This document shows, piece after piece, positions 13,068 through 31,807 of a stretch of DNA of 31,807 nt. Origin of the DNA: a plasmid; the sequence record CP060656.1; one strand, given 5' to 3'. The notes beneath the pieces are model-generated. The model was not told the origin of the DNA. It did no database searches and saw only the letters and a program-made list of their open reading frames with translations. The first letter of the stretch is position 1. Every line of letters begins with the position of its first letter. A program made the position numbers and the translations under genes.

Positions 13068-13137
13068 TGAAATGTAGTATATACTAATATATATTAATAT
13101 ATATTGATGGTTAGTCAATCGGCTAACTACATTTAAG
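13068..13137. repeat. iteron cluster 1: three 10-bp direct repeats (TAGTATATAC TAATATATAT TAATATATAT) bracketed by AATGTAGT inverted repeat
   Basis: Read directly; lies in divergent promoter region between Rep-candidate and parA. Confidence 0.7.
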
Positions 13138-13823: not shown

Positions 13824-13853
13824 TATATATTAATATATACTAATATATATCGT
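13824..13853. repeat. iteron cluster 2: three 10-bp direct repeats (TAATATATAT TAATATATAC TAATATATAT) immediately downstream of parA
   Basis: Read directly; same unit as cluster 1. Confidence 0.7.
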
Positions 13854-13881
13854 TTCTCGTGAAATCTGATGGAGTTTCAGC

Positions 13882-16306: not shown

Positions 16307-16314
16307 AACATTAT

Positions 16315-16342
16315 TAAGGGGGTTAACGCCCCCTGTTTTTCT
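16315..16342 (+). terminator. intrinsic terminator GGGGGTTAACGCCCCC-TGTTTTTC
   Basis: Hairpin plus T-run. Confidence 0.7.
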
Positions 16343-16363
16343 TACCTCAAGGAGATTACGCAT

Positions 16364-16945: not shown

Positions 16946-17058
16946 TATACAATTTGACGTGTTAAGTATTGAATTTTCTAGAAAAAATGGTATAACAGTA
17001 AAAGAGTGTGATAACACACCAAAAATACATACATAAAAATATTATAATAGGTGAGATT

Positions 17059-19230: not shown

Positions 19231-19262
19231 AAAAAAGGGGTTGCGAAAGCAGCCCCTTAAAC
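19231..19262. terminator. hairpin GGGGTTGC-GAAA-GCAGCCCC (A-run upstream, weak T-run downstream)
   Basis: GNRA-loop hairpin after helicase-like gene. Confidence 0.45.
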
Positions 19263-19300
19263 TTTATTAAATAGTCGTTTTCCAAAATAGAAAACACATT

Positions 19301-19333
19301 ATGAATAGAACTTCAATATACACTCTATTCATG
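19301..19333. promoter_or_regulatory. 9-bp perfect inverted repeat ATGAATAGA-N15-TCTATTCAT
   Basis: Read directly; between helicase-like gene terminator and ankyrin gene promoter. Confidence 0.35.
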
Positions 19334-19471
19334 GAATAATCAATTTTATTTTACTCGATATTTTTCAAATATATGCGCTAAATATTTTATATTAAGCGTG
19401 TAAAATTTGATTTTATTAAAAAAATAGTATATATATTTATTATAAATAATTTAAACTATAAGAGGTGGTTT

Positions 19472-19969
19472 ATGCTTGATTTAGATATTAAAAGAGAGTT
19501 GCTGTTTGCTGAAACAGCCGAAGAAGTAGATATATTGGTAAAGGCCGGAGCTGATGTAAACGGTCTTATGGGTAGTGTTTTTCCTTTAGCTTTAGCTGAA
19601 AACTTAGAAGTAGCAAAGGCATTAGTTGCTAATGGTGCTGATGTTAACTTTACCAATAAGAAAGGTGAAACAGCTATCTTCTATAACAAAAACATCGCTG
19701 TTATCAAATTTTTGATTTCACAAGGCGCAAATATTAACCATTTAAACAACGATGGTGAAACAGCATTGTTTAAAACATCCGACATTGAAATGATTAAAGC
19801 GCTTATCAAGTTGGGTTGTAGTCCATTCCTCAAAAACAAGAATGGAGATCGCCACGACACAAAAATAAAACCAGCAGATAAAGAAGAATACCAAAGCTTT
19901 ATGAATAAGCTTAAAGAAATGATCAGGAACGCACTTGAACAAAAAAAGCAGATGCTACAAGTAGCGTAA
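19472..19969 (+). CDS. ankyrin-repeat protein (165 aa)
   Basis: LVxxGADVN...GETAIF and LISQGANINHLNNDGETALF ankyrin repeats; AGAGGTGG RBS. Confidence 0.8.
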   Translation: MLDLDIKRELLFAETAEEVDILVKAGADVNGLMGSVFPLALAENLEVAKALVANGADVNFTNKKGETAIFYNKNIAVIKFLISQGANINHLNNDGETALFKTSDIEMIKALIKLGCSPFLKNKNGDRHDTKIKPADKEEYQSFMNKLKEMIRNALEQKKQMLQVA

Positions 19970-19995
19970 AAAAATAACCGGACTACCTCTTTAGT

Positions 19996-20027
19996 TTAAC
20001 CCGCTTCTGGCGGGTTTTTTCTTTTCT
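19996..20027 (+). terminator. intrinsic terminator CCCGC-TTCTG-GCGGG-TTTTTTCTTTTC
   Basis: Hairpin plus T-run. Confidence 0.7.
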
Positions 20028-20096
20028 GGCATTGACATATTTTGTTTTTATTTTAATTTATAATTATCACCCAATTGAAAAGAAAAAGGAAAAATC

Positions 20097-20489
20097 ATGA
20101 AAGCATTAACAGACATATTAAAAACCAAAAATACAATTGAAATTGAAAAATTCATTAATGAAAACCGCGTTATTGAAGAAGATTTTTATATTGATGAAGT
20201 AGCCAATATTTTCCATGTTGTTCTACTTACAAAACAATATAAGAGCTATGAAGTAGCAAGAATGCTTACCAAATACTTTGACATTAACAAGCAGGATAAA
20301 GCTGGTAAAACAGTTCTGTTCTATGCCGTTCTCATGGGGAATACTGAAGCTGTTAAGTTCTTTATCTCCGCAGGAGGCGATGTATCAATAAAAGACAATC
20401 AAGGCAGAAAAGCGGCAGACCAGATAACACTACTTGATCTTCAAAATGCTTCTTCAATGTCAAGAGTATTACTATCAGCAGAGAAATAA
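20097..20489 (+). CDS. ankyrin-repeat protein (130 aa)
   Basis: DKAGKTVLFYAVLMGNTEAVKFFISAGGDVSIKDNQGRKA ankyrin consensus. Confidence 0.75.
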   Translation: MKALTDILKTKNTIEIEKFINENRVIEEDFYIDEVANIFHVVLLTKQYKSYEVARMLTKYFDINKQDKAGKTVLFYAVLMGNTEAVKFFISAGGDVSIKDNQGRKAADQITLLDLQNASSMSRVLLSAEK

Positions 20490-20490
20490 C

Positions 20491-20928
20491 ATGGATGAGT
20501 TTTCTTTAGATACGTTAAAATCATATATAGACAGAAATCAAACTTCACTATTCTATGATTACCTCACTAAGCACCAATTAGACACTAATATGAATATTTT
20601 ATCTTGGTGTCTTTTGTCTGTTTTTTCAAAGTCAGAAAATGAAAACCACCAATACTATAATTTGTTCTGTTTAGTAGTGGGATTGTTCAAAGATGTTAAT
20701 ACCCCAATCAATGGAAGACTACCATTAGAAATAGCTTACTCAATTAATAACATTAAGTTTTATATCCATCTTCTTTTGAATGGAGCAGATCCCCAAAAGA
20801 AAAATAGCAAATACAAATCCACGTATGAAATAATAATCAAAGATGAGAATGAAAAGTTTCTTTCCTATATAATGCGGTATGAGCAAAGTCTGATTAATGA
20901 AATACAGAAAAGAAAAGGCACTCATTGA
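20491..20928 (+). CDS. ankyrin-like protein (about 145 aa), coupled to upstream ankyrin gene
   Basis: ATG 1 nt after upstream stop; LLLNGADPQ and LPLEIAYSINN ankyrin-like segments; terminator overlaps stop. Confidence 0.5.
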   Translation: MDEFSLDTLKSYIDRNQTSLFYDYLTKHQLDTNMNILSWCLLSVFSKSENENHQYYNLFCLVVGLFKDVNTPINGRLPLEIAYSINNIKFYIHLLLNGADPQKKNSKYKSTYEIIIKDENEKFLSYIMRYEQSLINEIQKRKGTH

Positions 20929-20942
20929 GAGTGCCTTTTTCT
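20910..20942 (+). terminator. terminator AAAGGCACTC-ATTGA-GAGTGCCTTTTTC overlapping the stop codon of 20491-20928
   Basis: 10-bp stem plus T-run. Confidence 0.65.
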
Positions 20943-21261
20943 AAAAGTGATACTTATATGATGTCAAAACTTACAATAAATAGAAATTGGGTATTAATAT
21001 TTACGTATTAATTAAGTAATCAATTACCTTCCTTCCGTCAATAGCAGTTGAAAAATATTTTCCATTTTCTTGAAAAAAGTGTTGATCGTCATAAGCGTTC
21101 TGTAGATAATTACCAAATCAAAGCAGTCATATGCTTTACGCATCATGTAGGTTCAGGCTTTAAGCCTCCATCTTTCGATAGATGATGATGCACCAACCGC
21201 CGGAATGGTTCCGGCCTGTTCCATGAACTCATGGAGCTGATCTATCTATAGAGGTTGGTTT

Positions 21262-22170
21262 ATGACTGTATCTATCCAAAACACCCCATCTTCAAGCCTA
21301 AAGCCCCTTTACCGTTGGGCTGGCGGCAAATCTAAGCTACTCAAAAGCTACAATCCACATCTACCAGATTTGAACAGCGTAAGCGCATACGTAGAGCCGT
21401 TCTTTGGAGCTGGCGCTCTCTTTGCGTCTGTTAAGTCTACATACAACCAGATCCCTACAATCATCAACGACATTAACCCTGAGCTGGTAAGTCTACTCAA
21501 TACCATCAAACACGATTTTAAAGCGTTCTGTATCGAGCTGCAGGAGCTGGAAGCGGCTTACCTATCTATACGCTCTCAGGAGGTCAGGAACTACCGTTTC
21601 TATCAGCGTAGAGAACAGTATTGGAAAGAACAGATTGGTAGTGTCCGGGCATCGGCCTTACTCCTGTTTTTGATGAGCACCGGCTTTAACGGGATATGGC
21701 AGGTAAACAAGAAGACAGGCCGCTACGGAACAGGCGCAGGGTTGCTTAACCATAAGGGCAGTCTCTTTGATTACTCACTCCTGAACGAGTGGCACAGAGC
21801 TTTACAGGCAACGTCTATCCATTGCGGTTCTTATGCTGATCTCGATGTTCCAGCAGGGGCTTTTGTCTACTGTGATCCGCCTTACAGGGATAGCTACGCC
21901 GATTATGGCCATGCATTCACTGATGAAGACCACAAAGACCTTATCGAATGGTGTCGGCAGCTTCAGGAGCGGGGCTGTGTTGTGTGGTTAGCCAACAGAG
22001 AGGCAAATGATAGCTTCTTTGAAGAAAACGCTTCTGATGCTTCTGTATTGCGGTTTGACATTACCTACACAGCCGGAAGAAAAAAGAAAACGGAAAACGG
22101 ACATGAAGCAGTAAAAGCTAAGGATTTGCTGATGATTTGGAATAATAAAAACATGATTAAAGCCGCTTAA
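21262..22170 (+). CDS. dam: Dam-family N6-adenine DNA methyltransferase (302 aa), orphan
   Basis: RWAGGK, EPFFGAGALF (motif I), YCDPPY (motif IV), FNGIWQVN match E. coli Dam; GC-rich; no adjacent restriction endonuclease gene. Confidence 0.9.
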   Translation: MTVSIQNTPSSSLKPLYRWAGGKSKLLKSYNPHLPDLNSVSAYVEPFFGAGALFASVKSTYNQIPTIINDINPELVSLLNTIKHDFKAFCIELQELEAAYLSIRSQEVRNYRFYQRREQYWKEQIGSVRASALLLFLMSTGFNGIWQVNKKTGRYGTGAGLLNHKGSLFDYSLLNEWHRALQATSIHCGSYADLDVPAGAFVYCDPPYRDSYADYGHAFTDEDHKDLIEWCRQLQERGCVVWLANREANDSFFEENASDASVLRFDITYTAGRKKKTENGHEAVKAKDLLMIWNNKNMIKAA

Positions 22171-22179
22171 TAAAAAATA

Positions 22180-22232
22180 TTTGATTTATGCTTTTGTCAT
22201 AGTGTTAACTTTAATATATAAACTAAAAGAGG
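22180..22232 (+). promoter_or_regulatory. promoter family C copy 1 (TTTGATTTATGCTTTTGTCATAGTGTTAACTTTAA; TTGTCA-17-TATAAA)
   Basis: Duplicated at 27358-27410 with about 90% identity. Confidence 0.55.
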
Positions 22233-22240
22233 AAAATGAA

Positions 22241-22696
22241 ATGAGTTATATGTCATTAAATGTAGTAAGCATTCAGATTAAAAAAGCAAATGTTGAAAAA
22301 CTCACTGCGTGGGTCAGAGATTTTGAAAACATACGTGCATATGGAAGCGCATCAAATATAGATATTATAAAAAATGATGATAGAGAAGAAGATGCTCATT
22401 ACATAAAAACGAAAAGGTATAGAAAAGAATGGTTTGATATTTTCTTTGAATCCTCTGATGAACTTAATCATTTTTATCAAGACGGGTTTTTAGAAGGGAT
22501 CGCGAGAATGTTTGATTGCTATGTCAATATTAGCTCAATAACATCTTGGTGTTGTCCTTATCATGAGTCATATACTATGTATATGGATAACTGGTATGAA
22601 CCGTATTATAAAAACTTTACCGGAGATGAAAGTAGAAAATGGCCTCGCCATATAGGTATGTATTTTTGGAACTGGGTAAATCTTGATGAGATTTAA
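22241..22696 (+). CDS. hypothetical W/Y-rich protein (151 aa)
   Basis: Promoter family C copy upstream; AGAGGAAA RBS; track N-terminus MIYAFVIVLTL is translated promoter repeat. Confidence 0.5.
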   Translation: MSYMSLNVVSIQIKKANVEKLTAWVRDFENIRAYGSASNIDIIKNDDREEDAHYIKTKRYRKEWFDIFFESSDELNHFYQDGFLEGIARMFDCYVNISSITSWCCPYHESYTMYMDNWYEPYYKNFTGDESRKWPRHIGMYFWNWVNLDEI

Positions 22697-22783
22697 ATGA
22701 CGTGAATAAACAGGTCTTGAGTAAGAACTGGCACACCCAAAAAGCAGCGTAATTATTTTTTAATAAAAGAGAGGATACAAAAA

Positions 22784-23077
22784 ATGAGAAAGAAGTTTAG
22801 ACCTGTGGATTTTCATACAAGCAATATGGGAAATAACTATATAACTTTAGAATGTATGATGTCAGCACCATTTCATGAACATTCACCAGAGCTTTTCGCT
22901 AAATGTTTAGCAGAGGTCCCCAAAATAAACAGGCTACTTATTGATAGACGTAAGTGTGATAGCAAGGAACATTACGAAAAGGTTTTGATGGTTGCTGATA
23001 TGTGTTTATCAATGATGATGATTGAGCGCCGTCTTGGTATCGTTAATGAAGATAATAGTTATTTTAATCAAAAATGA
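22784..23077 (+). CDS. hypothetical protein (97 aa)
   Basis: AGAGAGGA RBS. Confidence 0.5.
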   Translation: MRKKFRPVDFHTSNMGNNYITLECMMSAPFHEHSPELFAKCLAEVPKINRLLIDRRKCDSKEHYEKVLMVADMCLSMMMIERRLGIVNEDNSYFNQK

Positions 23078-23087
23078 GAGGTGATAT

Positions 23088-23468
23088 ATGGAATACATGA
23101 ACGTAGTGAGAAGTGATTTCGAAGAGTTCGCAAAAGAGAACGTAGAAGGTTATGAACATAGTAAAACATTAATGATGCCTGAATATGTATCAAACACGGA
23201 TTATCCACAGATTAAACGTGTTCCATTCTTTTCATTTGAGGGTAATAAATTGCTATTTACCTATAATCAACTGGAAGATAACAGGATAAATAAAGCTGTA
23301 TTAAAATATGCTGTTAACCTTTGCTTTAATAGTGATATGAGTAATAAGTATAGAGATATAGAGGCTTTGAGTAATACGTATTCCGCTGTTTATTACTGTT
23401 TACTCGACAACATGTATAAGACATTAAAGAAAAAAGACATTGAGAGTGTTTTATATTGGCTTGATTAA
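23088..23468 (+). CDS. hypothetical protein (126 aa)
   Basis: GAGAGGTGA RBS, 10 nt after upstream stop; terminator 23470-23498. Confidence 0.5.
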   Translation: MEYMNVVRSDFEEFAKENVEGYEHSKTLMMPEYVSNTDYPQIKRVPFFSFEGNKLLFTYNQLEDNRINKAVLKYAVNLCFNSDMSNKYRDIEALSNTYSAVYYCLLDNMYKTLKKKDIESVLYWLD

Positions 23469-23469
23469 A

Positions 23470-23498
23470 TAAGGGGCTTACATAGCCCTGTATTTAAG
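23470..23498 (+). terminator. hairpin GGGCTTACATAGCCC family copy 1
   Basis: Same hairpin at 24040 and 24994. Confidence 0.5.
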
Positions 23499-23559
23499 AA
23501 AATGAAATGTATTTTCAAGGTGGTATCTATTAAACATAACATAAAAAAGGATAAGTAAT

Positions 23560-23991
23560 ATGAAAGACAACAAAGAACTAAAAATAGCAACTATAACAAC
23601 TAATATGTTAGCAAAATACATTTATGAAGGAATAATTAAACTTGATGATGAGAGTTTAGCAAAGTATGAAGATTTAGCTGAGTTTCAATCTCATAAAGTT
23701 GATATAGATGTTTATGATGTTTTAGAGGATATAGAAGCATATCTAAATGACGTTATAGATTTATTAGAAACAGATGTTTTTTGTGAAAATATCCTAACTA
23801 ACTTTAATGGAAAAAATCATGAATATGAAGCAATCCATTTTGATACAGAAGAAGAGTTAAAAGAATTTCTTTTAGAAGAAGATCTATTTATCATTAATAA
23901 CTCTTTAATCATTAACTCTGTTTCTGATGATTTAGATGCTTGCACACAAGTTTTAGAAATGCTTGAAGCTAATAAAATCCATAACGATTAA
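23560..23991 (+). CDS. strongly acidic small protein (143 aa, about 24% D+E)
   Basis: AAGGAT RBS; net charge roughly -25 from composition; DNA-mimic anti-restriction candidate is inference only. Confidence 0.5.
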   Translation: MKDNKELKIATITTNMLAKYIYEGIIKLDDESLAKYEDLAEFQSHKVDIDVYDVLEDIEAYLNDVIDLLETDVFCENILTNFNGKNHEYEAIHFDTEEELKEFLLEEDLFIINNSLIINSVSDDLDACTQVLEMLEANKIHND

Positions 23992-24038
23992 TCGTGAGTA
24001 TTTAGAGAGTGAAATGACTTGCTTGATTTTATTGATTA

Positions 24039-24062
24039 AAGGGCTTACATAGCCCTTTAATC
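24039..24062 (+). terminator. hairpin AAGGGCTTACATAGCCCTTT copy 2
   Basis: 7-bp stem, T-run. Confidence 0.55.
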
Positions 24063-24075
24063 CAGATAATAAAAT

Positions 24076-24150
24076 ATATTTAAAATAAAAGTATTTATTA
24101 ATTTGACTAATATTTTAAAAGAGGTATCTATTTAATATAACATAAAATAA
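24076..24150 (+). promoter_or_regulatory. promoter cassette A, diverged copy (TTGACT 24103-24108)
   Basis: TAAAATAAAAGTATTTATTAATTTGACTAATATTTTAAAA similarity. Confidence 0.55.
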
Positions 24151-24162
24151 AAGGAAAACATT

Positions 24163-24414
24163 ATGAATGAAAACAGTATAATTGAAGAACTCTTTGGGAT
24201 TGTAGAAAACAATAAAACACATAGCCATGATGATTTAATCAGTGTGATTGATGAAAAGATTAAAACCATAGCTGAAATAACCTTAGAAGCAAAATCCAAA
24301 GATAAAAAGATTGAGCAGCTTAAAGAGAGAATAGAGATCCTATCCTTCTTGTTAGCTAAACGTGATTTGAAAATCAGTGCTCTTGAAGATGAAATAGAAG
24401 AGTTAAAAATATAA
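24163..24414 (+). CDS. coiled-coil small protein (83 aa)
   Basis: Diverged promoter cassette A copy at 24076-24150; heptad-rich. Confidence 0.5.
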   Translation: MNENSIIEELFGIVENNKTHSHDDLISVIDEKIKTIAEITLEAKSKDKKIEQLKERIEILSFLLAKRDLKISALEDEIEELKI

Positions 24415-24427
24415 TAAAACAACCATT

Positions 24428-24450
24428 GGGGAGTAATCCCCTTTTTTATA
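24428..24450 (+). terminator. intrinsic terminator GGGGA-GTAA-TCCCC-TTTTTT
   Basis: Hairpin plus T-run. Confidence 0.7.
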
Positions 24451-24471
24451 AGCCAATATAAGGAAATCACT

Positions 24472-24720
24472 ATGAGTGAGAAAACAATAGAACGTCAAGT
24501 TATAGACCAGATCTTAGAACTTAAAACAAAAAACGAGAAAGAGTTAGTTGGTAGATTAAAAATTTTAGAAGATGAAAAGGAATGTATAATAATGAAGTAT
24601 GAACACATTATAAGTGAATTAAAAGATAAGCTTGAATGTGCTCGTAAAGAAAATGAATGGCTTTTGTCTGATATTTATCATATTCAAAGCATCATTAAAG
24701 AGGGTGAAAATGAAAAGTAA
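24472..24720 (+). CDS. coiled-coil small protein (82 aa)
   Basis: AAGGAAAT RBS. Confidence 0.5.
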   Translation: MSEKTIERQVIDQILELKTKNEKELVGRLKILEDEKECIIMKYEHIISELKDKLECARKENEWLLSDIYHIQSIIKEGENEK

Positions 24721-24991
24721 TGATAACTGGAATGGAACAACAAAAAAAGAAGATGAAATATCATTAGATGACTCGACTATCACAATATCTTTATCAAAAG
24801 AAGATGAAGAGGCAGAAAAGAAACAGTCTTTAAGGAAGAGATTTAATATCGAAAATCATTTAGAGAATGCGGCAATGTCAGGAGGTGTTATTGTAGTGAT
24901 CTTAGGCATGATTATCTACCTTCCGGTTATCCTTGTGATGATGACAGGGTTGATGATAAGAGAGTTGATAGACACGGTGAGAGAATGGTGA
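24710..24991 (+). CDS. small C-terminally TM-anchored protein (93 aa)
   Basis: GAGGGTGA RBS; start overlaps upstream stop by 11 nt; terminator 24993-25017. Confidence 0.45.
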   Translation: MKSNDNWNGTTKKEDEISLDDSTITISLSKEDEEAEKKQSLRKRFNIENHLENAAMSGGVIVVILGMIIYLPVILVMMTGLMIRELIDTVREW

Positions 24992-24992
24992 T

Positions 24993-25017
24993 GCAAGGGG
25001 CTTACAGCCCCTTTGTC
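24993..25017 (+). terminator. hairpin AAGGGGCTTACAGCCCCTTTG copy 3
   Basis: Stem plus short T-run. Confidence 0.55.
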
Positions 25018-25101
25018 TTGCCCGTTCTGTAGCTATATCCTGTAGAAAATCGCCTCAACACATGGTATGTTGGTTAAGTTAAGTCCTTATGTGTGTATCT
25101 C

Positions 25102-25476
25102 ATGCTCAAATACAAAAGCCTGAAAGATTTTCTTGATGAACAGAAACAGCAAGAGCTATATAAAAAAAGGCTTGCTGAAAAGCTCTATTACACTATTAAA
25201 AAGGGAACGGCAGAAGAGATATTATCAGTTTTCAAGCAGTGTTCTGAAAGTGGTTTAGATTTCAAACAGGTTAAACATGACTACTTACTTGAATACTTTG
25301 ATACGTTCAGATCTGGATATAACAAACCCTCGATACTTATCACCCGCCTGATTATCAGTTATCAAAAAATCATTTCTGTAAAAGCTATCCAGTCATTTTA
25401 TAACAACATCTATTACAGGCATCTTCTGGATGATGAAGAGCTAATAGAGTTAACTTCTCTTATCATTAAAGATTAA
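25102..25476 (+). CDS. hypothetical protein (124 aa)
   Basis: ORF without clear RBS or promoter; GC-richer leader. Confidence 0.35.
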   Translation: MLKYKSLKDFLDEQKQQELYKKRLAEKLYYTIKKGTAEEILSVFKQCSESGLDFKQVKHDYLLEYFDTFRSGYNKPSILITRLIISYQKIISVKAIQSFYNNIYYRHLLDDEELIELTSLIIKD

Positions 25477-25515
25477 ATCTGTAAGTAATCCGCTTATCTA
25501 AAACACCTTCCGATT

Positions 25516-25560
25516 ATTTGACAATTGGGTTAGTTTTGTTATTTATATTTATATATAACA
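25516..25560 (+). promoter_or_regulatory. promoter family B (TTATTTGACAATTGGGTTAG), related copy at 1620-1665
   Basis: 20-bp shared block upstream of two unrelated genes. Confidence 0.45.
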
Positions 25561-25576
25561 AACAAAGGAGATATTT

Positions 25577-25945
25577 ATGGATTACGCACAAAGCAAAGAG
25601 ATTTCATTACACATTATAAGTTCTATGAAGTTGAGTGTTCACTTTAACAAATTTGAAGTTGATAACGAAAAAGATATGGATGGTATTAAATACATAATCG
25701 AAAGAAACAAAGCAAACATAAAGATCAGCACAGCAAAAATTAAAGTTGTTGAGCCGGGAAGTTTATTATTCTTATCAAGTAAAATGAGGGATACACTAAA
25801 AGCCACTGACCTATTCATTATTTATACTGATGTTGATGAAAGTAATGATGAAGAGATAACAAAGAAACTAAGAGACTTTGCCTTTAGACATAAAGCATTT
25901 GTTGTTCAGATAACGAAAAGCAGAGGTAGTTATGATAATAGATAA
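25577..25945 (+). CDS. hypothetical protein (122 aa)
   Basis: Promoter family B (TTGACAATTGGGTTAG) upstream; AAGGAGAT RBS. Confidence 0.55.
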   Translation: MDYAQSKEISLHIISSMKLSVHFNKFEVDNEKDMDGIKYIIERNKANIKISTAKIKVVEPGSLLFLSSKMRDTLKATDLFIIYTDVDESNDEEITKKLRDFAFRHKAFVVQITKSRGSYDNR

Positions 25946-26240
25946 AATACAATATTGTGATTATGACTACACGTTAAAACAGATTAAACATGGAAATTAC
26001 TATCACTTTAGGATTTATAAAAAACAATCAAATCATAAAGTAGTAAGAGGAACGGAACCAAAATATTTAGTAAAAAGTGAAGTTGATCTTTTAACAGACA
26101 AAAGAGTATATGCCGGAAAAGATAAAGCGAAAATAGAACAGTTTGCAGAATCAATGAAGGATGAGTTAACAAACATAGTTTTTGACGTGATGAGTAAAAC
26201 CAATAGCGTTGATGCAAAAATAAGCATAACAGGAGAATAA
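25932..26240 (+). CDS. hypothetical protein (102 aa), overlaps upstream by 14 nt
   Basis: GCAGAGGTAG RBS. Confidence 0.5.
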   Translation: MIIDKIQYCDYDYTLKQIKHGNYYHFRIYKKQSNHKVVRGTEPKYLVKSEVDLLTDKRVYAGKDKAKIEQFAESMKDELTNIVFDVMSKTNSVDAKISITGE

Positions 26241-26241
26241 T

Positions 26242-26544
26242 ATGATATTTTTAACATTAGTTATTATAGTGAATTTATTGATATTCGTTAACATGGGTAG
26301 TTTTGTTAGTTGGGTTTCAGAACACAAGGTTTATGGGATATGGTATAAAAGAATATTCAAGATCGGTTTTCTTTTCTTATTCGCTATGTTTATTGCCAGT
26401 ATCTTGGGTGGTGAAGCAGTTCAGACAGCAGCTAAATCATTCTTCTTTTATATTGATTGCGTCATCGGGTTTGTCTTAATGACTATAGTTCACGCCTTTT
26501 TCGTCAAACTAAAATCCAAAAAGGACACGTCCAAACCCGCCTAA
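26242..26544 (+). CDS. small 3-TM membrane protein (100 aa)
   Basis: GGAGAA RBS; ATG 2 nt after upstream stop; terminator 26544-26568. Confidence 0.5.
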   Translation: MIFLTLVIIVNLLIFVNMGSFVSWVSEHKVYGIWYKRIFKIGFLFLFAMFIASILGGEAVQTAAKSFFFYIDCVIGFVLMTIVHAFFVKLKSKKDTSKPA

Positions 26545-26568
26545 AGCCCCGCAAGGGGTTTTAAAAGC
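26544..26568 (+). terminator. intrinsic terminator AGCCCC-GCAA-GGGGTTTT
   Basis: GNRA-like loop hairpin plus T-run. Confidence 0.65.
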
Positions 26569-26733
26569 ATTCATCTATTCACTTCTTTACATTGAATGTT
26601 AAAACCTATCAAAACCACCAATCAATTGACAAAACCAATTAATAACTTGATTTTAATTGTCGGTTACGTCATTTTTAACTTGTTTTGAAATTTCTTGTTA
26701 CAAACACTAATCAGAACAGGTAAGGAACACATT

Positions 26734-27033
26734 ATGAAGAAGCAGATTTTAGCAGCAGCGGCTCTTGTGGCATCGCTGGCGCTCTCCGGTTGTGGTGATG
26801 ATGGTATCTATGGAACGTATGAAAACGCCCAGTACGGCGCTGTTCTCGACGTTCAAAAGGATGTGATCAAGTTCAGGGGTGAAAGCTTTCCGGTGAAGTC
26901 ATGGGATGAAAGTCAAAAACCAACCTACATAGCTAAAACTCAACATAGCGTTGTTGGTTCATGGACGTTCAAGCTTGAGAAGACAAAAGACGGCGGCGTG
27001 ATTTATCAAGGCACAAAGTTTAAAAAGGATTAA
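26734..27033 (+). CDS. lipoprotein (99 aa; signal peptide with LSGC lipobox)
   Basis: MKKQILAAAALVASLALSGC; AAGGAA RBS; GC-rich relative to neighbours. Confidence 0.65.
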   Translation: MKKQILAAAALVASLALSGCGDDGIYGTYENAQYGAVLDVQKDVIKFRGESFPVKSWDESQKPTYIAKTQHSVVGSWTFKLEKTKDGGVIYQGTKFKKD

Positions 27034-27038
27034 TCAAA

Positions 27039-27311
27039 ATGGAAAATAAAACTGTTCGCTGTCCTTTCTGTGATCACGAGACTAAGCATGGTTTAGGTGT
27101 GTGTTTACCTTGCGGGGCAAACATAACATACGGTAAAGCGCCATTATGGTTTGGTCAAATTGGAGCTTTATTATCTGTTGTATTAAGCTTTGGTGTCTTG
27201 ATTTTTTCAGAGAATATGTTTATTGGTTTAGCTTCTCTTTTTGTGTTTTTGATATTAACTTTTGTTCTATCTAAAACTATCTATGCGGATAGAGTTGTAT
27301 TCACAAGATAA
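27039..27311 (+). CDS. zinc-ribbon (CPFC...CLPC) 2-TM membrane protein (90 aa)
   Basis: Four Cys in CxxC...CxxC arrangement followed by two hydrophobic helices; terminator 27318-27348. Confidence 0.55.
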   Translation: MENKTVRCPFCDHETKHGLGVCLPCGANITYGKAPLWFGQIGALLSVVLSFGVLIFSENMFIGLASLFVFLILTFVLSKTIYADRVVFTR

Positions 27312-27317
27312 CACCTA

Positions 27318-27348
27318 TCTTTAAGCCCCTTCGGGGGCTTTCTGTTTT
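27318..27348 (+). terminator. intrinsic terminator AAGCCCC-TTCG-GGGGCTT-TCTGTTTT
   Basis: UUCG tetraloop hairpin plus T-run. Confidence 0.75.
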
Positions 27349-27357
27349 ATAAATAAA

Positions 27358-27410
27358 TTTGATTTATGCTTTTGTCATAGTGTTAACTTTAGAAATAAAT
27401 AAACTAAAGG
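27358..27410 (+). promoter_or_regulatory. promoter family C copy 2
   Basis: See copy 1. Confidence 0.55.
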
Positions 27411-27418
27411 AAAATATT

Positions 27419-28099
27419 ATGAATAACATACAGCATTTATCAAAACTCATCACTGAAATAAAAAATCCTTCAACAGCATTAAACGCAGCAAGCATTTTAA
27501 AAGCAATAGAACTCTTTACAGGGTTTTGTCTTTATCTGGTTTGTGATGCGCTACATGCCAAACAAAAAACCTTCCAGATCACTTCCGGTATCTTCGACGG
27601 CAATATCATAGCTAACATGCCAAAAAACGAGATAGAGAAGTATAGCAAGGCGGCAGATGCGGCTTACCAATACGTTCATATCATCAAGCAGAAAGAGGCG
27701 TTTACAGACGTTCTATCAGAGCTGTATGAAGAGATCTATCTTACAGGTAAGTGCGGTGATGGATTAGGCCAGTTCCTGACGCCTGACGATGTGAGCAGTC
27801 TAATAACATCTATTGGTATGCGTTCAAGAGCTGATACAGCGAAAATCAATGAAGAATGCTGTGGTGCTGGCTCTATAGTGCTATCGACACTGAAAGAACT
27901 ACATCAGAAAAATGGAAGCTATCTTAATACAACACTAAATCTGAATGACATAGATCCTCTTATGGTAAAAATGGCAATCATTCAAGTCATGGCTCCAATT
28001 GCTTTTAAAGAAAATGTAGATATTAAAGAGATAAATATTTTTAATCACAATACTTTGTTAAATAAAAATAAGCAGGTTTTTAAATACACTTCGGGTTAA
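27419..28099 (+). CDS. HsdM/N6-adenine MTase-like N-terminal module lacking catalytic NPPF motif (226 aa), truncated MTase or decoy
   Basis: GQFLTP (motif X, cf. GEFYTP), EECCGAGS (motif I, cf. DPACGSGG), LNLNDIDPLMVKMAIIQV (cf. YGQESNPTTWRLAKMNL); ORF ends before motif IV; promoter family C upstream and cassette A immediately downstream. Confidence 0.5.
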   Translation: MNNIQHLSKLITEIKNPSTALNAASILKAIELFTGFCLYLVCDALHAKQKTFQITSGIFDGNIIANMPKNEIEKYSKAADAAYQYVHIIKQKEAFTDVLSELYEEIYLTGKCGDGLGQFLTPDDVSSLITSIGMRSRADTAKINEECCGAGSIVLSTLKELHQKNGSYLNTTLNLNDIDPLMVKMAIIQVMAPIAFKENVDIKEINIFNHNTLLNKNKQVFKYTSG

Positions 28100-28116
28100 C
28101 TACTCCATTCATCCTT

Positions 28117-28190
28117 TATTTTAAAATAAAAGTATATATTTATTTGACTATTATTTTAAATATAGTATTTATTATATATAACATAAAACA
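28117..28190 (+). promoter_or_regulatory. promoter cassette A copy (TTGACT 28144-28149)
   Basis: Identical core to 29320-29385 copy. Confidence 0.7.
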
Positions 28191-28203
28191 TAGGAGAATA
28201 GTT

Positions 28204-28629
28204 ATGAATATAAAATACATTCCAATAAGTTGTGGAAAAAATGAACCGTTAACATTTAATGAAAGTGGTTTTCTTGAGGTGGATGAACTTGATAACATTG
28301 AAGTTCAAAAAAATTCTTTTAGTGATATTGAAAAACTTATAACGTTAATAGAAGTAAAGGCATTAATGTTAAGTATTGTTTATCAGGATATAAACGCTCA
28401 AGATCTGGATATAACATTATCAACAGAAAGAGGCTATGTATGTGCTGAGTTTTGCGGTGGTGTCTATGAGATTAGCATAAGAACAGACATAGGAGCAGGA
28501 CGCTACGAAGCTTCTGTAGGTAATGAGCTGGTTATGTTTAACAGATTGGATGATGCGGTTGAAAGCTTCTTTGACTGTATAGAAGAAGCTGTAAAAGAGG
28601 TAATAAGAAGAGAGGGGGGAGATAACTAA
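28204..28629 (+). CDS. hypothetical protein (141 aa)
   Basis: Promoter cassette A copy 28117-28190; AGGAGAA RBS. Confidence 0.55.
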   Translation: MNIKYIPISCGKNEPLTFNESGFLEVDELDNIEVQKNSFSDIEKLITLIEVKALMLSIVYQDINAQDLDITLSTERGYVCAEFCGGVYEISIRTDIGAGRYEASVGNELVMFNRLDDAVESFFDCIEEAVKEVIRREGGDN

Positions 28630-29237
28630 TGAGCAAACTAATAGAAACAACAACAGCACAAAAGATTTTCAAATCCATGATTGATTTAAATCTTGATAAA
28701 GATGAAGTCATTTACTTTGAAGAGTTCATAAACTTGCTATATGAGGCGGGGTTATTAAACCCCGATTTTCAGGAGCATCAGGAATTCATAGAAAACAACA
28801 GAAACTATTTTATTGAGTTAAAGAGGATTAGAACAGAGGGAAATAAGACTTTCGTAATAAGAAACTATCTAAATGATATGTTCGCAGAGCTAAGAAGGTT
28901 AAACAAGGATTTAGGCTATACCTATAAAGAGAAGGTAGAAGAGCTTATCAAGGAGTTTGAAAGCTTCTCAGAGACAGCAAAGCCTCTTGGTGATGGTAAA
29001 AGCCTTGTTTATCTTGTAATGCTTGGAACTCAGTCAAAGGGAAAATCACACAAAAAGATTGTGTGTGTGTTTATAAGAGATGATGAAAACAAAGAAATGT
29101 TCAATCAATCAATGAACTCTAAAATAATTCTCGCTGAAAAAGTTATTTTCTTTGAAGAAGTAAATACATTCAGAAGACCAAAATACTATCTAAGTGTTCT
29201 TGATAAAGCATTCAATATATTCAATGAAACCATGTAA
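28629..29237 (+). CDS. hypothetical protein (202 aa), start overlaps upstream stop (TAATG)
   Basis: GGGGGGAGA RBS within upstream gene end; terminator 29235-29260. Confidence 0.55.
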   Translation: MSKLIETTTAQKIFKSMIDLNLDKDEVIYFEEFINLLYEAGLLNPDFQEHQEFIENNRNYFIELKRIRTEGNKTFVIRNYLNDMFAELRRLNKDLGYTYKEKVEELIKEFESFSETAKPLGDGKSLVYLVMLGTQSKGKSHKKIVCVFIRDDENKEMFNQSMNSKIILAEKVIFFEEVNTFRRPKYYLSVLDKAFNIFNETM

Positions 29238-29260
29238 TCCCCGCAATGGGGATTTTTTAT
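29235..29260 (+). terminator. intrinsic terminator ATCCCC-GCAA-TGGGGAT-TTTTT
   Basis: Hairpin plus T-run. Confidence 0.75.
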
Positions 29261-29302
29261 TGAGTTAAATTAATAATCAAGGATATATACACCGGATTAA
29301 TT

Positions 29303-29385
29303 AAACCGTTTATCTGGTTGTTTAAAATAAAAGTATATATTTATTTGACTATTATTTTAAATATAGTATTAATTATATATAAACA
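29303..29385 (+). promoter_or_regulatory. promoter cassette A copy with upstream AAACCGTTTATCTGG motif (TTGACT 29345-29350)
   Basis: Sequence identity. Confidence 0.7.
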
Positions 29386-29403
29386 AACAAAAGGAGAAGT
29401 AAT

Positions 29404-29691
29404 ATGAAAAAAATTAAATACATAGAAATCACTGACGCAGCTATTTTAAAATTCATTTCATTAAATAGTTTAGACGCTTCGGTAAAAATAGAAGACGAAA
29501 TAAGAAATGTTGCGGATTGGATGTTAAGCAATGAAATGTTTAAAAAAACTGGAAATAAAAAGATCATTGGAAAAATAGTAGACGCCGCTTCTGATTATCA
29601 TAAAGGTTGCTATTTAATCTATAACTTTGAAAAGTATTATAATATCGAATGTTTTTACACTGTAGATTTTAACGATTATATAAACAGCTAA
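29404..29691 (+). CDS. hypothetical protein (95 aa)
   Basis: Promoter cassette A copy 29303-29385; AAGGAGAAG RBS. Confidence 0.55.
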   Translation: MKKIKYIEITDAAILKFISLNSLDASVKIEDEIRNVADWMLSNEMFKKTGNKKIIGKIVDAASDYHKGCYLIYNFEKYYNIECFYTVDFNDYINS

Positions 29692-29699
29692 TATCTAAC

Positions 29700-29722
29700 A
29701 CAGCCCCGCAAGGGGCTATGGT
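29700..29722 (+). terminator. hairpin AGCCCC-GCAA-GGGGCT without T-run, directly before RBS of 29737 gene (weak terminator or attenuator)
   Basis: Read directly. Confidence 0.35.
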
Positions 29723-29736
29723 AAGGAGAATATAAC

Positions 29737-30123
29737 ATGATTAACTTTTTAATAGGTTTTTTGATAGAAATAAAGGTATTGGTTTTAAAGATAAAGATTG
29801 ATAAAGCCTCACATGTATTAAGTAGGGCTATGCTTTCAAAAGGGTATAGCAAAGACTTTAATGACAAATGTAAAACAGTAAGAAAAAAGCTTTTGGCTTT
29901 CTATGATAAAGATTTAAAACAACCATCCAACTATAGAAACGCTGAATATATGTTAGATGAAGCAATGGTTTTGTGTAATAAGTTTAACTACCTTGTTGAA
30001 AAATCACTTATTACAGAACATAAAAGAAATAGTAAAAGCTCAGGATCGTCAACCTCAGACTCATTTTTTGGAAGTGGTGGAGATTGTGATGGTGGCGGCG
30101 ATTGCGGCGGTGGAGGAGATTAA
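29737..30123 (+). CDS. hypothetical protein (128 aa) with Gly/Asp/Cys-rich C-terminal tail (GSGGDCDGGGDCGGGGD)
   Basis: AAGGAGAA RBS; low-complexity GC-rich 3' end. Confidence 0.5.
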   Translation: MINFLIGFLIEIKVLVLKIKIDKASHVLSRAMLSKGYSKDFNDKCKTVRKKLLAFYDKDLKQPSNYRNAEYMLDEAMVLCNKFNYLVEKSLITEHKRNSKSSGSSTSDSFFGSGGDCDGGGDCGGGGD

Positions 30124-30125
30124 TA

Positions 30126-30341
30126 ATGAATAAAACAGAAAAACCAATCAATATTATAACTTCTTCAATTTTTAATGTGGCGTTCAGTTTAGGGATAACA
30201 TCATTATTTGAGATAACAAACAATATTCCAACAATGATAGCAATGGGGATTTTAACAGAGATTATGACTTTAATAGCATACAAAGAGGAAATAAAAACAC
30301 TAATAAAAAATAGAAACCTAAACCGCTTATCTGATAGTTAA
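30126..30341 (+). CDS. small membrane protein (71 aa)
   Basis: GGAGGAG RBS; ATG 3 nt after upstream stop. Confidence 0.45.
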   Translation: MNKTEKPINIITSSIFNVAFSLGITSLFEITNNIPTMIAMGILTEIMTLIAYKEEIKTLIKNRNLNRLSDS

Positions 30342-30400
30342 AATAAAAGTATATATTTATTTGACTATTATTTTAATATGGTGTAATTAATATATATAAC
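30320..30400 (+). promoter_or_regulatory. promoter cassette A copy with upstream AACCGCTTATCTGATAG motif (TTGACT 30361-30366)
   Basis: Sequence identity. Confidence 0.7.
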
Positions 30401-30421
30401 ATAAAACAAAAGGAGAATATT

Positions 30422-30748
30422 ATGTCAAAATTAAATAGTGAAGATTTTAACGCAATGAAAGAAGCTGGTTTTATTAATGAATGGAAAAAACCCGGAAGTG
30501 ATGAAGTTAGATATTACATCAACACTAAAGAGATAATCAATCTATGGTCAGAAGATAAGATTGAATTAGGTTATTCAAGAAGAGAAAGGTCTGAGTTAGA
30601 AGCACATAAATGGTGGTATGTTGAGTCTAAAAATGGTGGTTTTGTTTTAAAAACATCTATGAGTTATAACAACACTAAGCATAAATATATATTCCCATCA
30701 CTTTCAAAAGTATTGATAGAAGCGTCTAAAAGCGATCTTTCTGACTGA
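30422..30748 (+). CDS. hypothetical protein (108 aa)
   Basis: Promoter cassette A copy 30320-30400; AAGGAGAAT RBS. Confidence 0.55.
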   Translation: MSKLNSEDFNAMKEAGFINEWKKPGSDEVRYYINTKEIINLWSEDKIELGYSRRERSELEAHKWWYVESKNGGFVLKTSMSYNNTKHKYIFPSLSKVLIEASKSDLSD

Positions 30749-30800
30749 ATGTTATAGGATGGTATTGAAAGGTTAATAAACATAAAAAAAGGAAAGTATT

Positions 30801-31076
30801 ATGAATAGAACAAACTTTAATGTAATAATGAAAGATATAGTAGCGGAGCGTTTTGATGATGAAAGTGAAGCTTTGACATTTCTTGTCTCTGAAATGAGAG
30901 CTAATGGATATTATATTAACCCAAATGATTATTATCTATGTTGTGTTAGAGGTGGTTTAAATATTACTAAACTAGATCGCATTCAAAACTACGGTAAAAG
31001 GTTTAAAGCACATCAGATAAAAGAAGAGTTAAAATCAGTTTATGAACACATTAAAGAAAAATGTAAAGAATACTGA
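30801..31076 (+). CDS. hypothetical protein (91 aa)
   Basis: AAAGGAAAG RBS; bidirectional terminator 31080-31108. Confidence 0.55.
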   Translation: MNRTNFNVIMKDIVAERFDDESEALTFLVSEMRANGYYINPNDYYLCCVRGGLNITKLDRIQNYGKRFKAHQIKEELKSVYEHIKEKCKEY

Positions 31077-31079
31077 ATA

Positions 31080-31108
31080 AAAAGCCCCATAACAGGGGCT
31101 TTCTTTTA
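31080..31108. terminator. bidirectional terminator AAAGCCCC-ATAACA-GGGGCTTT between cargo array and vapC
   Basis: Hairpin plus T-runs on both strands. Confidence 0.7.
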
Positions 31109-31507
31109 TCGGTTAGGTATGATGGTAATGTAGTCGCTGACAAACTCAATCAGCTTGCTATCGCTGGTAATTAAAGGAAGCTTGTTATGCTTCGCTTGAG
31201 CCACGATAAGACGGTCAAACGGGTCTTTGTGTAGCTTCTCCGGCAAATCGGCTACAACAAGCGTATGCTCACTTTTAACAGGTATCTCAATCAAGCCAGC
31301 TTCAAACAGACCATCTCTAAACAACGTTGGATTATCAACGTCAAAGGGCTTGTTAAGACTACTTTTAATTACGACTTCCCAAACGCTGGCAGCAGAGAAG
31401 AACAGGCGGTTTTCGGTGTCTTCCAACAGCTCTACAACCTCTTGCTTTAAGCGATCAGGACGAAAACCCATGAATATTAAGATATTGGTATCTAAGAGGT
31501 AATCCAT
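31106..31507 (-). CDS. vapC: PIN-domain toxin VapC (133 aa)
   Basis: N-terminal LLDTNIL, conserved acidic residues, PFDRLIVAQA; start overlaps antitoxin stop (TAATG). Confidence 0.85.
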   Translation of the reverse strand: MDYLLDTNILIFMGFRPDRLKQEVVELLEDTENRLFFSAASVWEVVIKSSLNKPFDVDNPTLFRDGLFEAGLIEIPVKSEHTLVVADLPEKLHKDPFDRLIVAQAKHNKLPLITSDSKLIEFVSDYITIIPNR

Positions 31508-31764
31508 TACTCATATTTCCCTTCAAACATATCTTGAATTTCATCAGCGTTCATATCATCAAAGTTATCAAGGAAGCTATCAGAAACGCTACCTTTGTTG
31601 AGCATGAAACCTAATTTACGCTTAGGCTTCTCTTCTCTGTATGCGATGACTTTTACCAGAGCGTGACCGTTCTTTGCGATCACAACTGGCTCACCAGTCC
31701 GGGCGACCTCTTGAACGATCTTGGACAGGTTAGTTTTGGCATCATAGATGTTAACCTTTTCCAT
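31507..31764 (-). CDS. Phd/YefM-family antitoxin (85 aa)
   Basis: MEKVNIYDAKTNLSKIV...GEPVVIAKNG typical Phd/YefM N-terminus; GAGGTAA RBS; start at internal ATG 31764. Confidence 0.8.
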   Translation of the reverse strand: MEKVNIYDAKTNLSKIVQEVARTGEPVVIAKNGHALVKVIAYREEKPKRKLGFMLNKGSVSDSFLDNFDDMNADEIQDMFEGKYE

Positions 31765-31807
31765 AGTATTACCTCGCATTGAACACATTTTAAGCTTACT
31801 CCCTGTA

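Follow-up and report, generated by a model that had tools for sequence, protein, structure and literature searches.

Positions 21262 to 31076 of plasmid record CP060656.1, part of a 31,807-nucleotide (nt) stretch of DNA that was analyzed as a whole (the window), carry 22 consecutive genes on the + strand, followed as far as position 31788 by a convergent toxin-antitoxin (TA) pair. Except for a Dam-family DNA adenine methylase of 302 amino acids (aa) at the start, the proteins encoded are 71 to 226 aa long. By their layout the genes fall into ~14 transcription units, accompanied by ~9 promoter-like cassettes and nine G+C-rich hairpins. A preliminary description of this DNA had pictured a one-directional island of ~20 genes, mostly of 70 to 200 aa without recognizable domains, most of them equipped with a private strong promoter and a terminator. 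The run of genes and their sizes agree with that picture. Their common orientation is no trait of the island, as 42 of the 51 genes of the entire plasmid lie on the + strand, and the numbers of cassettes and hairpins suffice for multigene units rather than for most single genes, with promoter strength a presumption. The genes are the following.

21262-22170, + strand: Dam-family (D12 class) DNA adenine methylase, 302 aa, apparently orphan
22241-22696, + strand: g02, 151 aa, W/Y/C-rich ORFan with no family match
22784-23077, + strand: g03, 97 aa, paired with g04 across a 10-nt gap
23088-23468, + strand: g04, 126 aa
23560-23991, + strand: g05, 143 aa, very acidic (isoelectric point [pI] 4.09, net charge -26), single-gene module
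24163-24414, + strand: g06, 83 aa, probably a coiled coil
24472-24720, + strand: g07, 82 aa, 11-nt overlap with g08
24710-24991, + strand: g08, 93 aa, C-terminal membrane span
25102-25476, + strand: g09, 124 aa, start uncertain (GTG at 25093 or ATG at 25102)
25577-26544, + strand: g10 (122 aa), g11 (102 aa), and g12 (100 aa, three membrane spans), an overlapping or abutting triple
26734-27311, + strand: g13 (99 aa, lipoprotein, lipobox LSGC) and g14 (90 aa), 5-nt gap
27419-28099, + strand: g15, 226 aa, HsdM-like
28204-29237, + strand: g16 (141 aa, acidic, pI 4.18) and g17 (202 aa), 1-nt overlap (ATGA)
29404-29691, + strand: g18, 95 aa
29737-30341, + strand: g19 (128 aa, N-terminal membrane span, G/D/C-rich tail) and g20 (71 aa, two membrane spans), 2-nt gap
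30422-31076, + strand: g21 (108 aa) and g22 (91 aa)
31106-31507, - strand: vapC (PIN domain, 1.4e-16)
31507-31788, - strand: phd-type antitoxin gene (PhdYeFM, 3e-10), sharing base 31507 with vapC

Essentially every open reading frame (ORF) of the island is under purifying selection and hence a real gene. Ratios of nonsynonymous to synonymous substitution rates (dN/dS) in comparisons with relatives, designated here by locus numbers such as L007, are 0.04 to 0.47 with many synonymous changes; examples are g03/g04 (0.13 to 0.17), g06 (0.09 to 0.37), g09 (0.12 to 0.13), g10 to g12 (0.06 to 0.19), and g14 (0.04 to 0.07). The sole exception is g07 in the comparison with L007, which comprises only nine substitutions, and the same gene gives 0.21 against L004. 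The ORFs are tightly packed behind strong Shine-Dalgarno sequences, and six sets overlap or are tightly coupled (g03/g04, g07/g08, g10/g11/g12, g13/g14, g16/g17, and g19/g20), in accordance with the pairs and triples noted earlier. Membrane proteins or a lipoprotein make up 6 of the 21 small proteins; among them, g14 combines a CxxC...CxxC zinc ribbon (weak zinc-ribbon matches) with a hydrophobic membrane span.

Nineteen of the small proteins are ORFans for which no family was found in Pfam, PHROGs, PADLOC, NCBIfam (eight proteins scanned), or the PDB sequences, the last searched with the concatenated island proteins; these searches gave only sub-threshold noise, such as SNaCT11 at 1e-4 (below its cutoff) and coiled-coil matches. 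When the concatenated proteins were compared with plasmids by tblastn, the matches came essentially only from one family of linear plasmids, and against phages there were three marginal matches, all of them to g15. The acidic g05 has 169 homologues, and the long contigs among the matches listed are mostly of ~30 to 45 kb, the size of these linear plasmids. Rfam and tRNA scans of the whole window returned no matches, and a functional study of these genes was not found in the literature.

The plasmid is a linear plasmid of Enterobacteriaceae, belonging to phylogroup E of the pBSSB1 family, and the island together with vapBC to position 31788 is its right, telomere-proximal arm. Positions 15000 to 31807 are 97.6% identical to the Klebsiella pneumoniae plasmid CP052179.1, and the gene order is common to 10 further full-length records of Klebsiella, Citrobacter, and Raoultella (56 records match at the DNA level). 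Those parts of the study by Hawkey et al. 2022 (PMC9453081) that define the family describe 86 plasmids in five phylogroups, with a G+C content of <40% and terminal inverted repeats (TIRs), whose genes are mostly hypothetical and whose replication and transfer genes are not recognized; there, vapBC is restricted to phylogroup E and serves as its marker. The likeness of the window to phylogroup E as described there amounts to membership, comprising 97% identity to deposited members, vapBC, a low G+C content (about 33 to 34%), and a ParA gene adjoining a gene with an LPD7 domain (PF18821). The window aligns to positions 707 to 33101 of pKSB1_9E_2 (L007), a fully assembled linear member, which is exactly the stretch between the two 706-bp TIRs of that plasmid (1-706 and 33102-33807). 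Thus, the window is a whole phylogroup-E plasmid minus its ends. It carries no TIRs itself (~670 bp in the description of phylogroup E), and the ends are probably missing from the record through assembly loss, as is supposed for 29 public records by Hawkey et al. 2022 (PMC9453081). L007 starts with a perfect palindrome of 62 nt, a hint of a hairpin-type end or of an assembly that continued around such an end.

Structural change in these plasmids is concentrated in the arms. Nine phylogroup-E plasmids compared with the window show 44 distinct breakpoints, 37 of them in the arms (right arm, 20; left arm, 17), while the 14.6-kb core has the other 7. Of the 20 right-arm breakpoints, 16 are intergenic or lie at most 20 nt from a gene end, as against a background of 25% (p = 5e-7). 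Whole genes come and go at these points. The gene for g05 is missing from L004, L013, and L014, with breaks at 23514 and 24028; g21-g22 is swapped for a 298-nt segment in L014, L015, and L016; and L004, L012, and L013 have an insert of 564 to 569 nt at the terminator of g17 (29236-29254), where an annotated DEDDh exonuclease gene is located in L004 and L012. Similar changes are found in the left arm, where two copies of a repeated cassette (cassette A, see below) enclose an additional 663-nt gene in L007 and the window has a single copy (2895-3012). At the junction upstream of the left-arm gene u02, five of the nine plasmids (L007, L012, L014, L016, and L017) are without ~179 nt, and L004 and L013 are without ~176 nt.

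Arm genes are also shared across phylogroups, at identities that the backbone does not reach. Relative to L002 and L003, which belong to another phylogroup, the backbone proteins are 27% (u22), 31% (TraY), 32% (a DUF927 protein), and 56% (ParA) identical, as against 86% for g05, 88% for Dam, 94% for g14, and 100% for g02; the g02 protein (WP_045307779.1) is the same in L002, L003, and L015. Identity to L008/L009, of another phylogroup, is 94% for g21, within a gene-sized DNA segment (30384-30748), and 79% for g03, and g05 is common to the window and L002 as a gene-sized segment (23578-23992). The DNA segments held in common with other phylogroups stop at gene boundaries. Genes are found on either arm as well: L008/L009 have their homologues of g05, g13, and g16 on the other arm, and left-arm u02 has homologues in the right arm of L002 and L006. 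Homologues at 38 to 60% identity in other phylogroups keep their full length; g09 has homologues of 58 to 59% identity in three other loci of different phylogroups.

The intergenic regions of the arms contain repeated promoter-like cassettes of three types (A, B, and C) and hairpins, located as follows.

24061-24162, + strand: cassette A before g06 (A/T-rich tract, TTGACT, TATCTAT-type -10, leader, AAGGAA Shine-Dalgarno sequence)
28100-28203, + strand: cassette A before g16
29285-29403, + strand: cassette A before g18
30319-30421, + strand: cassette A before g21, overlapping the 3' end of g20
1247-1356, - strand: cassette A in the left arm, before u03
2895-3012, + strand: cassette A in the left arm, before u06
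~854-908 (within 654-930), - strand: degenerate cassette A upstream of u02, with a short unannotated ORF after it
22180-22213, + strand: cassette B, copy 1, before g02 (TTGTCA, 17 nt, TATAAA)
27358-27391, + strand: cassette B, copy 2, before g15
25515-25576, + strand: cassette C (TTGACAAT...) before g10
23473-23488, + strand: hairpin GGGGCTTACATAGCCC after g04
24040-24056, + strand: hairpin after g05, of the same sequence family as that at 23473-23488
24428-24441, + strand: terminator-like hairpin GGGGAGTAATCCCC, then a T run, after g06
24996-25012, + strand: hairpin AGGGGCTTACAGCCCCT after g08
26545-26560, + strand: hairpin AGCCCCGCAAGGGGTT after g12
27323-27340, + strand: terminator-like hairpin AAGCCCCTTCGGGGGCTT, then a T run, after g14
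29236-29254, + strand: terminator-like hairpin AATCCCCGCAATGGGGATT, then a T run, at the end of g17
29702-29717, + strand: hairpin AGCCCCGCAAGGGGCT after g18, without a T run
31081-31102, called on both strands: hairpin terminator between g22 and vapC, usable both ways

Cassette A, of ~100 nt, precedes g06, g16, g18, and g21 in the right arm and u06 and u03 in the left arm. Its layout is an A/T-rich tract, TTGACT, 16 to 17 nt, TATTAAT, a leader of ~30 nt, AAGGAG, and ATG, with a 10-nt A/T inverted repeat flanking the -35 element. A 27-nt core occurs six times at no more than three mismatches, compared with no occurrence in 100 shuffles. When seven copies are aligned, each of the six regular ones has a same-strand ATG ~65 to 70 nt downstream of its TTGACT, and for the degenerate copy near u02 the first downstream ATG is ~60 nt away. 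The orientation of the cassette matches that of the downstream gene on both plasmid strands. Cassette A is confined to phylogroup E, and within the window every copy lies in one of the two arms. The two copies of cassette B share an exact 34-mer within a 79-nt direct repeat (partner at 27351-27429), and cassette B also precedes the homologous genes in L002, a plasmid of another phylogroup that has a repeated promoter-like motif of its own. Further copies of cassette C precede the ankyrin-repeat gene ank1 (1623-1660) and traY (8476-8512).

Terminator-like hairpins are enriched (18 versus 5.4 expected). A G+C-rich hairpin stands directly before a cassette at g05/g06, g14/g15, and g17/g18 but not at every copy. 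The gene for g05 is bracketed by a 59-nt direct repeat (23456-23514 and 24023-24081) that includes its hairpin.

The closest parallel to this arrangement is found in T4-type phages, in which elements known as PeSLs, consisting of sigma-70-like promoters together with stem-loops, precede ORFans in hyperplastic genome regions and mediate modular shuffling (Arbiol et al. 2010, PMC2839356; Comeau et al. 2014, PMC4122927). Both the phage elements and the plasmid cassettes are repeated intergenic sequences that run from an A/T tract through sigma-70-like hexamers and a Shine-Dalgarno sequence to the start of a small ORFan; both come with stem-loops, which at some of the plasmid copies would close the upstream unit, are concentrated in the variable parts of the genome, and bound insertions, deletions, and replacements of whole genes. 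They differ in that the PeSLs belong to a virulent phage with ~50 cassettes, whereas the linear plasmid has few types in near-identical copies (six to seven of cassette A). Some of the plasmid copies have no G+C-rich hairpin; where there is one, it stands upstream of the promoter, and the -35 element is surrounded only by an A/T inverted repeat. Demonstrated promoter and terminator activity and the formation of mini-circles are criteria for PeSL-type regions; the plasmid elements are putative promoters and terminators.

We therefore consider it likely that the right arm is a PeSL-like hyperplastic cargo region of ~14 short units that evolves by cassette-bounded exchange of whole genes, a proposal about architecture and mode of evolution, not about the functions of the genes. 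It builds on the observed repeats, the coding status of the ORFs, the breakpoints at gene ends, and the sharing across phylogroups. Each unit would consist of one to three small genes, several of them preceded by a G+C-rich hairpin and a repeated cassette. The cassettes and hairpins that recur along both arms would offer homology for recombination, so that whole genes could be gained, lost, replaced, moved between arms, and exchanged across phylogroups. The cassettes would probably act as sigma-70 promoters, silent in the established state and firing upon arrival in a new cell. Silencing would most plausibly be exerted by the plasmid's own H-NS homologue, a guess at a plausible regulator of A/T-rich promoters. 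A homologue of H-NS with N- and C-terminal domains is encoded at 6375-6869 on the - strand.

Several points weigh against this proposal. Cassette A is used by only 4 of the ~14 island units, and many junctions are therefore without a long repeat for recombination. Breakpoints at gene ends could in part result from selection against disrupted genes instead of cassette-guided recombination, and the ends of the BLAST blocks by which they were placed are accurate to ~10 to 20 nt. As a promoter, cassette A has a good -35 element (TTGACT) and a -10 element that agrees with the consensus at only four of six positions; a generic sigma-70 scan called no copy on the + strand and flagged TTAAAA-17-TATACT on the minus strand in three copies. 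Both the activity and the direction of the cassette promoters hence stay inferences. The same scan, covering 19000 to 31807, gave 54 sites versus 58 expected and is uninformative in A+T-rich DNA. The regulator is guessed, and none of the 19 ORFans is linked to a function or to any defense or anti-defense family.

With regard to the cargo, direct evidence is limited to Dam, g15, and VapBC. The methylase matches PF02086 (2e-34) and, above its cutoff, TIGR00571 (3e-43); it has the motifs FxGxG (residue 47) and DPPY (residue 205), and its best PADLOC matches are MTase_II and oMTase. Its gene stands out by a G+C content of 46% as against about 33% for the plasmid and has a dN/dS of 0.06 to 0.20. 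No recognizable endonuclease adjoins it, and for the neighboring g02 neither a restriction endonuclease nor any other match was found in PADLOC, Pfam, or NCBIfam. Dam is thus apparently an orphan methylase of the D12 class, as had been proposed. At the other end of the island, vapC and phd are the last module before the right TIR and represent a predicted VapBC type II TA system, in which the gene of a PIN toxin overlaps that of an upstream Phd/YefM-type antitoxin.

The HsdM-like g15 matches the Pfam family N6_Mtase at profile positions 3 to 121 of 311 (5e-9), the hsdM model TIGR00497 far below its cutoff (5e-9), and phrog_5696 (4e-16). Motifs X and I for binding of S-adenosylmethionine (SAM) are present (GQFLTP and EECCGAGS), and catalytic motif IV, [ND]PP[YFW], is absent. 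The same is true of all 45 aligned homologues (two alignments), which keep a nearly invariant GQFxTP, a CxG, and a DxD. The family comprises 96 homologues, 83 of them 212 to 291 aa long and the rest shorter fragments, with none above 291 aa or close to the size of a complete methylase; one to three g15-like copies per plasmid occur in several phylogroups, and phage proteins of 220 to 226 aa resemble g15. Its dN/dS is 0.06 to 0.09. The retained motifs and low dN/dS indicate a conserved protein, not a broken gene. Structure prediction, which the preliminary description had recommended for each ORF, was informative for g15, yielding a confident AlphaFold model with a pLDDT of 86.5. Among PDB structures this model comes closest to type I methylase subunits (TM-score 0.4 to 0.56), which it matches in the helical domain at the N terminus and the initial half of the Rossmann fold. 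For the acidic g05 (alignment of 20 sequences) the pLDDT of 37.6 made the model unusable. Like the HsdM/N6_Mtase family of type I restriction-modification (R-M) systems, among which PacII M, StySJI HsdM, and EcoR124I HsdM are nearest, g15 has an N-terminal helical domain followed by GQFxTP, CxGxG, and DxD, but it ends before motif IV (NPPF/Y) and is without a target-recognition or HsdS-binding part. We predict that g15 is a conserved SAM-binding protein without the capacity for methylation. An inhibitor or decoy function is a hypothesis, and reports of dead HsdM-like inhibitors were not found in the literature.

In relatives, the same arm holds type III R-M genes (L006 and L008) and a DEDDh exonuclease gene (L004; PADLOC model, 1e-22), and outside the arm there are a PADLOC candidate defense gene, PDC-S51 (2e-85), and a true ArdC gene next to the LPD7 gene (L005, of another phylogroup). 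Linear plasmids of this family thus hold both defense and anti-defense genes. The cargo is most probably a mixture of genes for interaction with the host, with Dam serving in the evasion of restriction, the catalytically dead g15 perhaps interfering with type I or BREX-type systems, the acidic proteins possibly acting as DNA mimics, and the small membrane proteins and the lipoprotein possibly acting in exclusion. For the arm as a whole, a function in anti-defense or defense is plausible, with conflict genes in the relatives and a strong avoidance of short palindromes (see below). For any given small ORF, however, an anti-defense role is possible but doubtful. A stronger version of the same idea, in which the arms are a fast-turning reservoir of anti-restriction and host-takeover proteins, delivered in a burst from strong cassettes on entry and including dead HsdM-like inhibitors of type I or BREX systems and the DNA mimics g05 and g16, with the cassettes as counterparts of PeSLs that move genes between unrelated linear plasmids, appears unlikely as a whole. 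The preliminary description was largely correct in what it observed, including the very acidic 143-aa protein, the lipoprotein, the zinc-ribbon membrane protein, and the methyltransferase fragment without a catalytic motif. Its interpretation is partly supported, being right in spirit (accessory small genes of conflict type) and wrong in frame. Of its analogy to phages and conjugative plasmids, the phage half, with early, individually promoted small genes, fits better and the conjugative half worse.

The establishment regulon of the IncW plasmid R388 consists of small operons, including anti-restriction genes, each of which has a copy of a repeated promoter/operator, and is controlled by the repressor ArdK. 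Both R388 and the linear plasmid have several short operons of small genes behind repeated promoters; for R388 the repressor and several of the functions are known.

The small operons might instead benefit the host, as modules for defense, abortive infection, or exclusion directed against phages or competing plasmids. Such a role would suit the R-M, exonuclease, and PDC-S51 genes of the relatives, the membrane proteins or lipoprotein that make up 6 of the 21 small proteins, and the overlapping pairs and triples; the sets with membrane proteins and the lipoprotein/zinc-ribbon pair g13/g14 would be such modules. In a 393-kb E. coli plasmid outside the family (L011, 5460-6276), a g14 homologue is immediately preceded by a lipoprotein gene, and a MobA/MobL gene is ~1.3 kb away; entry-exclusion genes often occupy positions of this sort. 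Nonetheless, the 19 ORFans have no PADLOC matches, no nuclease, NTPase, or other effector domain was detected, and most units are single soluble proteins of ~100 aa, which are more typical of inhibitors than of defense systems. We regard host-benefiting cargo as an unlikely explanation of the arm. Unannotated g14-like ORFs are also present on small plasmids of 2.8 kb and 3.6 kb.

The leading-region-like frame of the preliminary description, in which the arm would be the first DNA to enter a conjugation recipient and its genes would be transcribed at once to neutralize restriction, CRISPR, or SOS responses, has fared poorly. Leading regions adjoin the origin of transfer (oriT) on the side away from the relaxase gene and comprise the first ~30 ORFs entering the recipient (Samuel et al. 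2024, PMC11541004). The arm resembles the anti-defense islands described there in its one-directional, small, uncharacterized genes, its orphan methylase, its TA pair, and its variable content. The apparently orphan Dam, the methyltransferase-like protein, and the TA pair represent three classes enriched in leading regions, and parts of a type IVB apparatus as well as the true ArdC adjoining the LPD7 gene in L005 would likewise fit. Were transfer to begin at an end, with a protein bound to the 5' terminus, entry from the right would bring in the minus strand as template for exactly the + strand genes of the arm. In contrast to those islands (Samuel et al. 2024, PMC11541004), however, no recognizable oriT or relaxase gene marks a leading end, the replicon belongs to a family of linear plasmids with TIRs, and no Frpo or ssi promoter and, in Pfam, PHROG, and NCBIfam searches of the island, no ArdA, KlcA/ArdB, ArdC, PsiB, SSB, or Acr was found. 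All 56 relatives matching at the DNA level are typed as non-mobilizable by MOB-suite, the + strand orientation extends beyond the island, and in other phylogroups the same gene families occur on either arm. On neither strand do the cassettes form stable single-stranded hairpins (-5.4 to -11.4 kcal/mol; z-scores of 0.02 to -2.0 versus shuffles), and single-strand promoters of the Frpo type were rejected. A circular conjugative plasmid with the island wrapping around to an oriT near position 1 was also considered and was dropped once the family was known to be linear. Taken together, a leading-region role for the arm is improbable.

Two backbone proteins, u22 and the LPD7 protein, were considered as relaxase candidates. 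Neither matched relaxase families in Pfam or NCBIfam, there is no recognizable oriT, and u22, the best candidate for a DNA-processing protein, is without detectable similarity to solved structures. This protein of 642 aa (14378-16306) has homologues in all nine loci L001 to L009, from several phylogroups. Its N-terminal domain has invariant residues H163, Q166, and H171, followed by H or Q at 173 (HUH-like), as well as a mostly conserved Tyr at ~38. Beyond this domain come a long coiled coil and, last, a basic PKxPK tail. An exhaustive search of 1.84 billion proteins gave 19 representatives, and a word-indexed search gave 16 near-identical homologues; no Pfam or NCBIfam match was obtained, and two profile searches of the PDB were empty. 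We propose u22 as a candidate nickase, relaxase, or terminal protein. The plasmid also encodes, at 8580-10790 and 4975-6099, a member of the DotA/TraY family (1.5e-90) and a pair of PilS-type pilins, with no other type IV secretion genes, and L008 contains a coupling-protein-like ATPase (DUF87, TraG-D_C, TrwB) at 33100-35082. This set of genes hints at the use of a type IVB helper by plasmids that are typed as non-mobilizable.

A last alternative, that the ORFs are not genes and arose by chance in non-coding or decaying A+T-rich DNA, would account for their lack of domains and of homologues outside the plasmid family, but with dN/dS well below 1 and many synonymous changes in essentially every ORF, strong Shine-Dalgarno sequences, tight packing, and full-length homologues at 38 to 60% identity in other phylogroups, it has a negligible probability and is refuted by the substitution pattern.

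The plasmid avoids certain palindromes to an extreme degree. In the whole plasmid, CTAG (3 observed versus 63 expected), GTAC (3 versus 50), TGCA (10 versus 67), and AATT (143 versus 253) are the four lowest of the 136 strand-symmetric 4-mer classes, and all four are palindromes; GATC is present 72 times versus 113 expected, and GATATC is absent (8.5 expected). Avoidance extends to L002, L005, and L008, and other phylogroups shun partly different palindromes (CTAG, ACGT, and GGCC in L005). Avoidance of 4-bp palindromes indicates heavy restriction pressure. Eight of the 10 TGCA sites fall within 21189-26213, consistent with a recent import of those modules.

Hosts of the family are Klebsiella, Salmonella, Enterobacter, Citrobacter, and E. 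coli, among them epidemic multidrug-resistant clones, and the replication, transfer, and ~80% of the genes of these linear plasmids are unexplained. In its treatment of gene content and phylogroups, the paper that defines the family (Hawkey et al. 2022, PMC9453081) does not, in the sections concerned, deal with arm cassettes, arm-concentrated rearrangement, or near-identical exchange of single genes. If the proposed PeSL-like mode of evolution is correct, cassette-bounded exchange would explain the scant gene sharing among phylogroups, show where selection acts fastest, and bring to plasmids a mechanism that T4-type phages are known for. Taken together, the palindrome avoidance, the arm genes, and the dead HsdM-like family mark restriction as a major pressure on these plasmids, and they provide a short list of clonable candidates for new anti-defense or exclusion functions.

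Some features of the backbone are also worth recording. The DUF927 protein (17008-19230) resembles the replicative helicase Cch1 of SCCmec (1e-10) and is likely the replication initiator or helicase of the family. Iterons of the TAATATATA type flank parA on both sides (13075-13108 and 13821-13854) and are found in the TIR of L007 (621-650) as well; they may serve as a set of centromere-like sites, located around the par locus and close to the two telomeres. Three ankyrin-repeat proteins (1683-2258, 19472-19969, and 20097-20489), mutually similar by blastp, are unusual for an enterobacterial plasmid; ank2 homologues are present in all nine loci compared, and those of ank1 and ank3 are present in most. 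Finally, L005, of another phylogroup, carries ISEcp1 with qnrB19 (20593-22989), and these plasmids can therefore pick up resistance genes.

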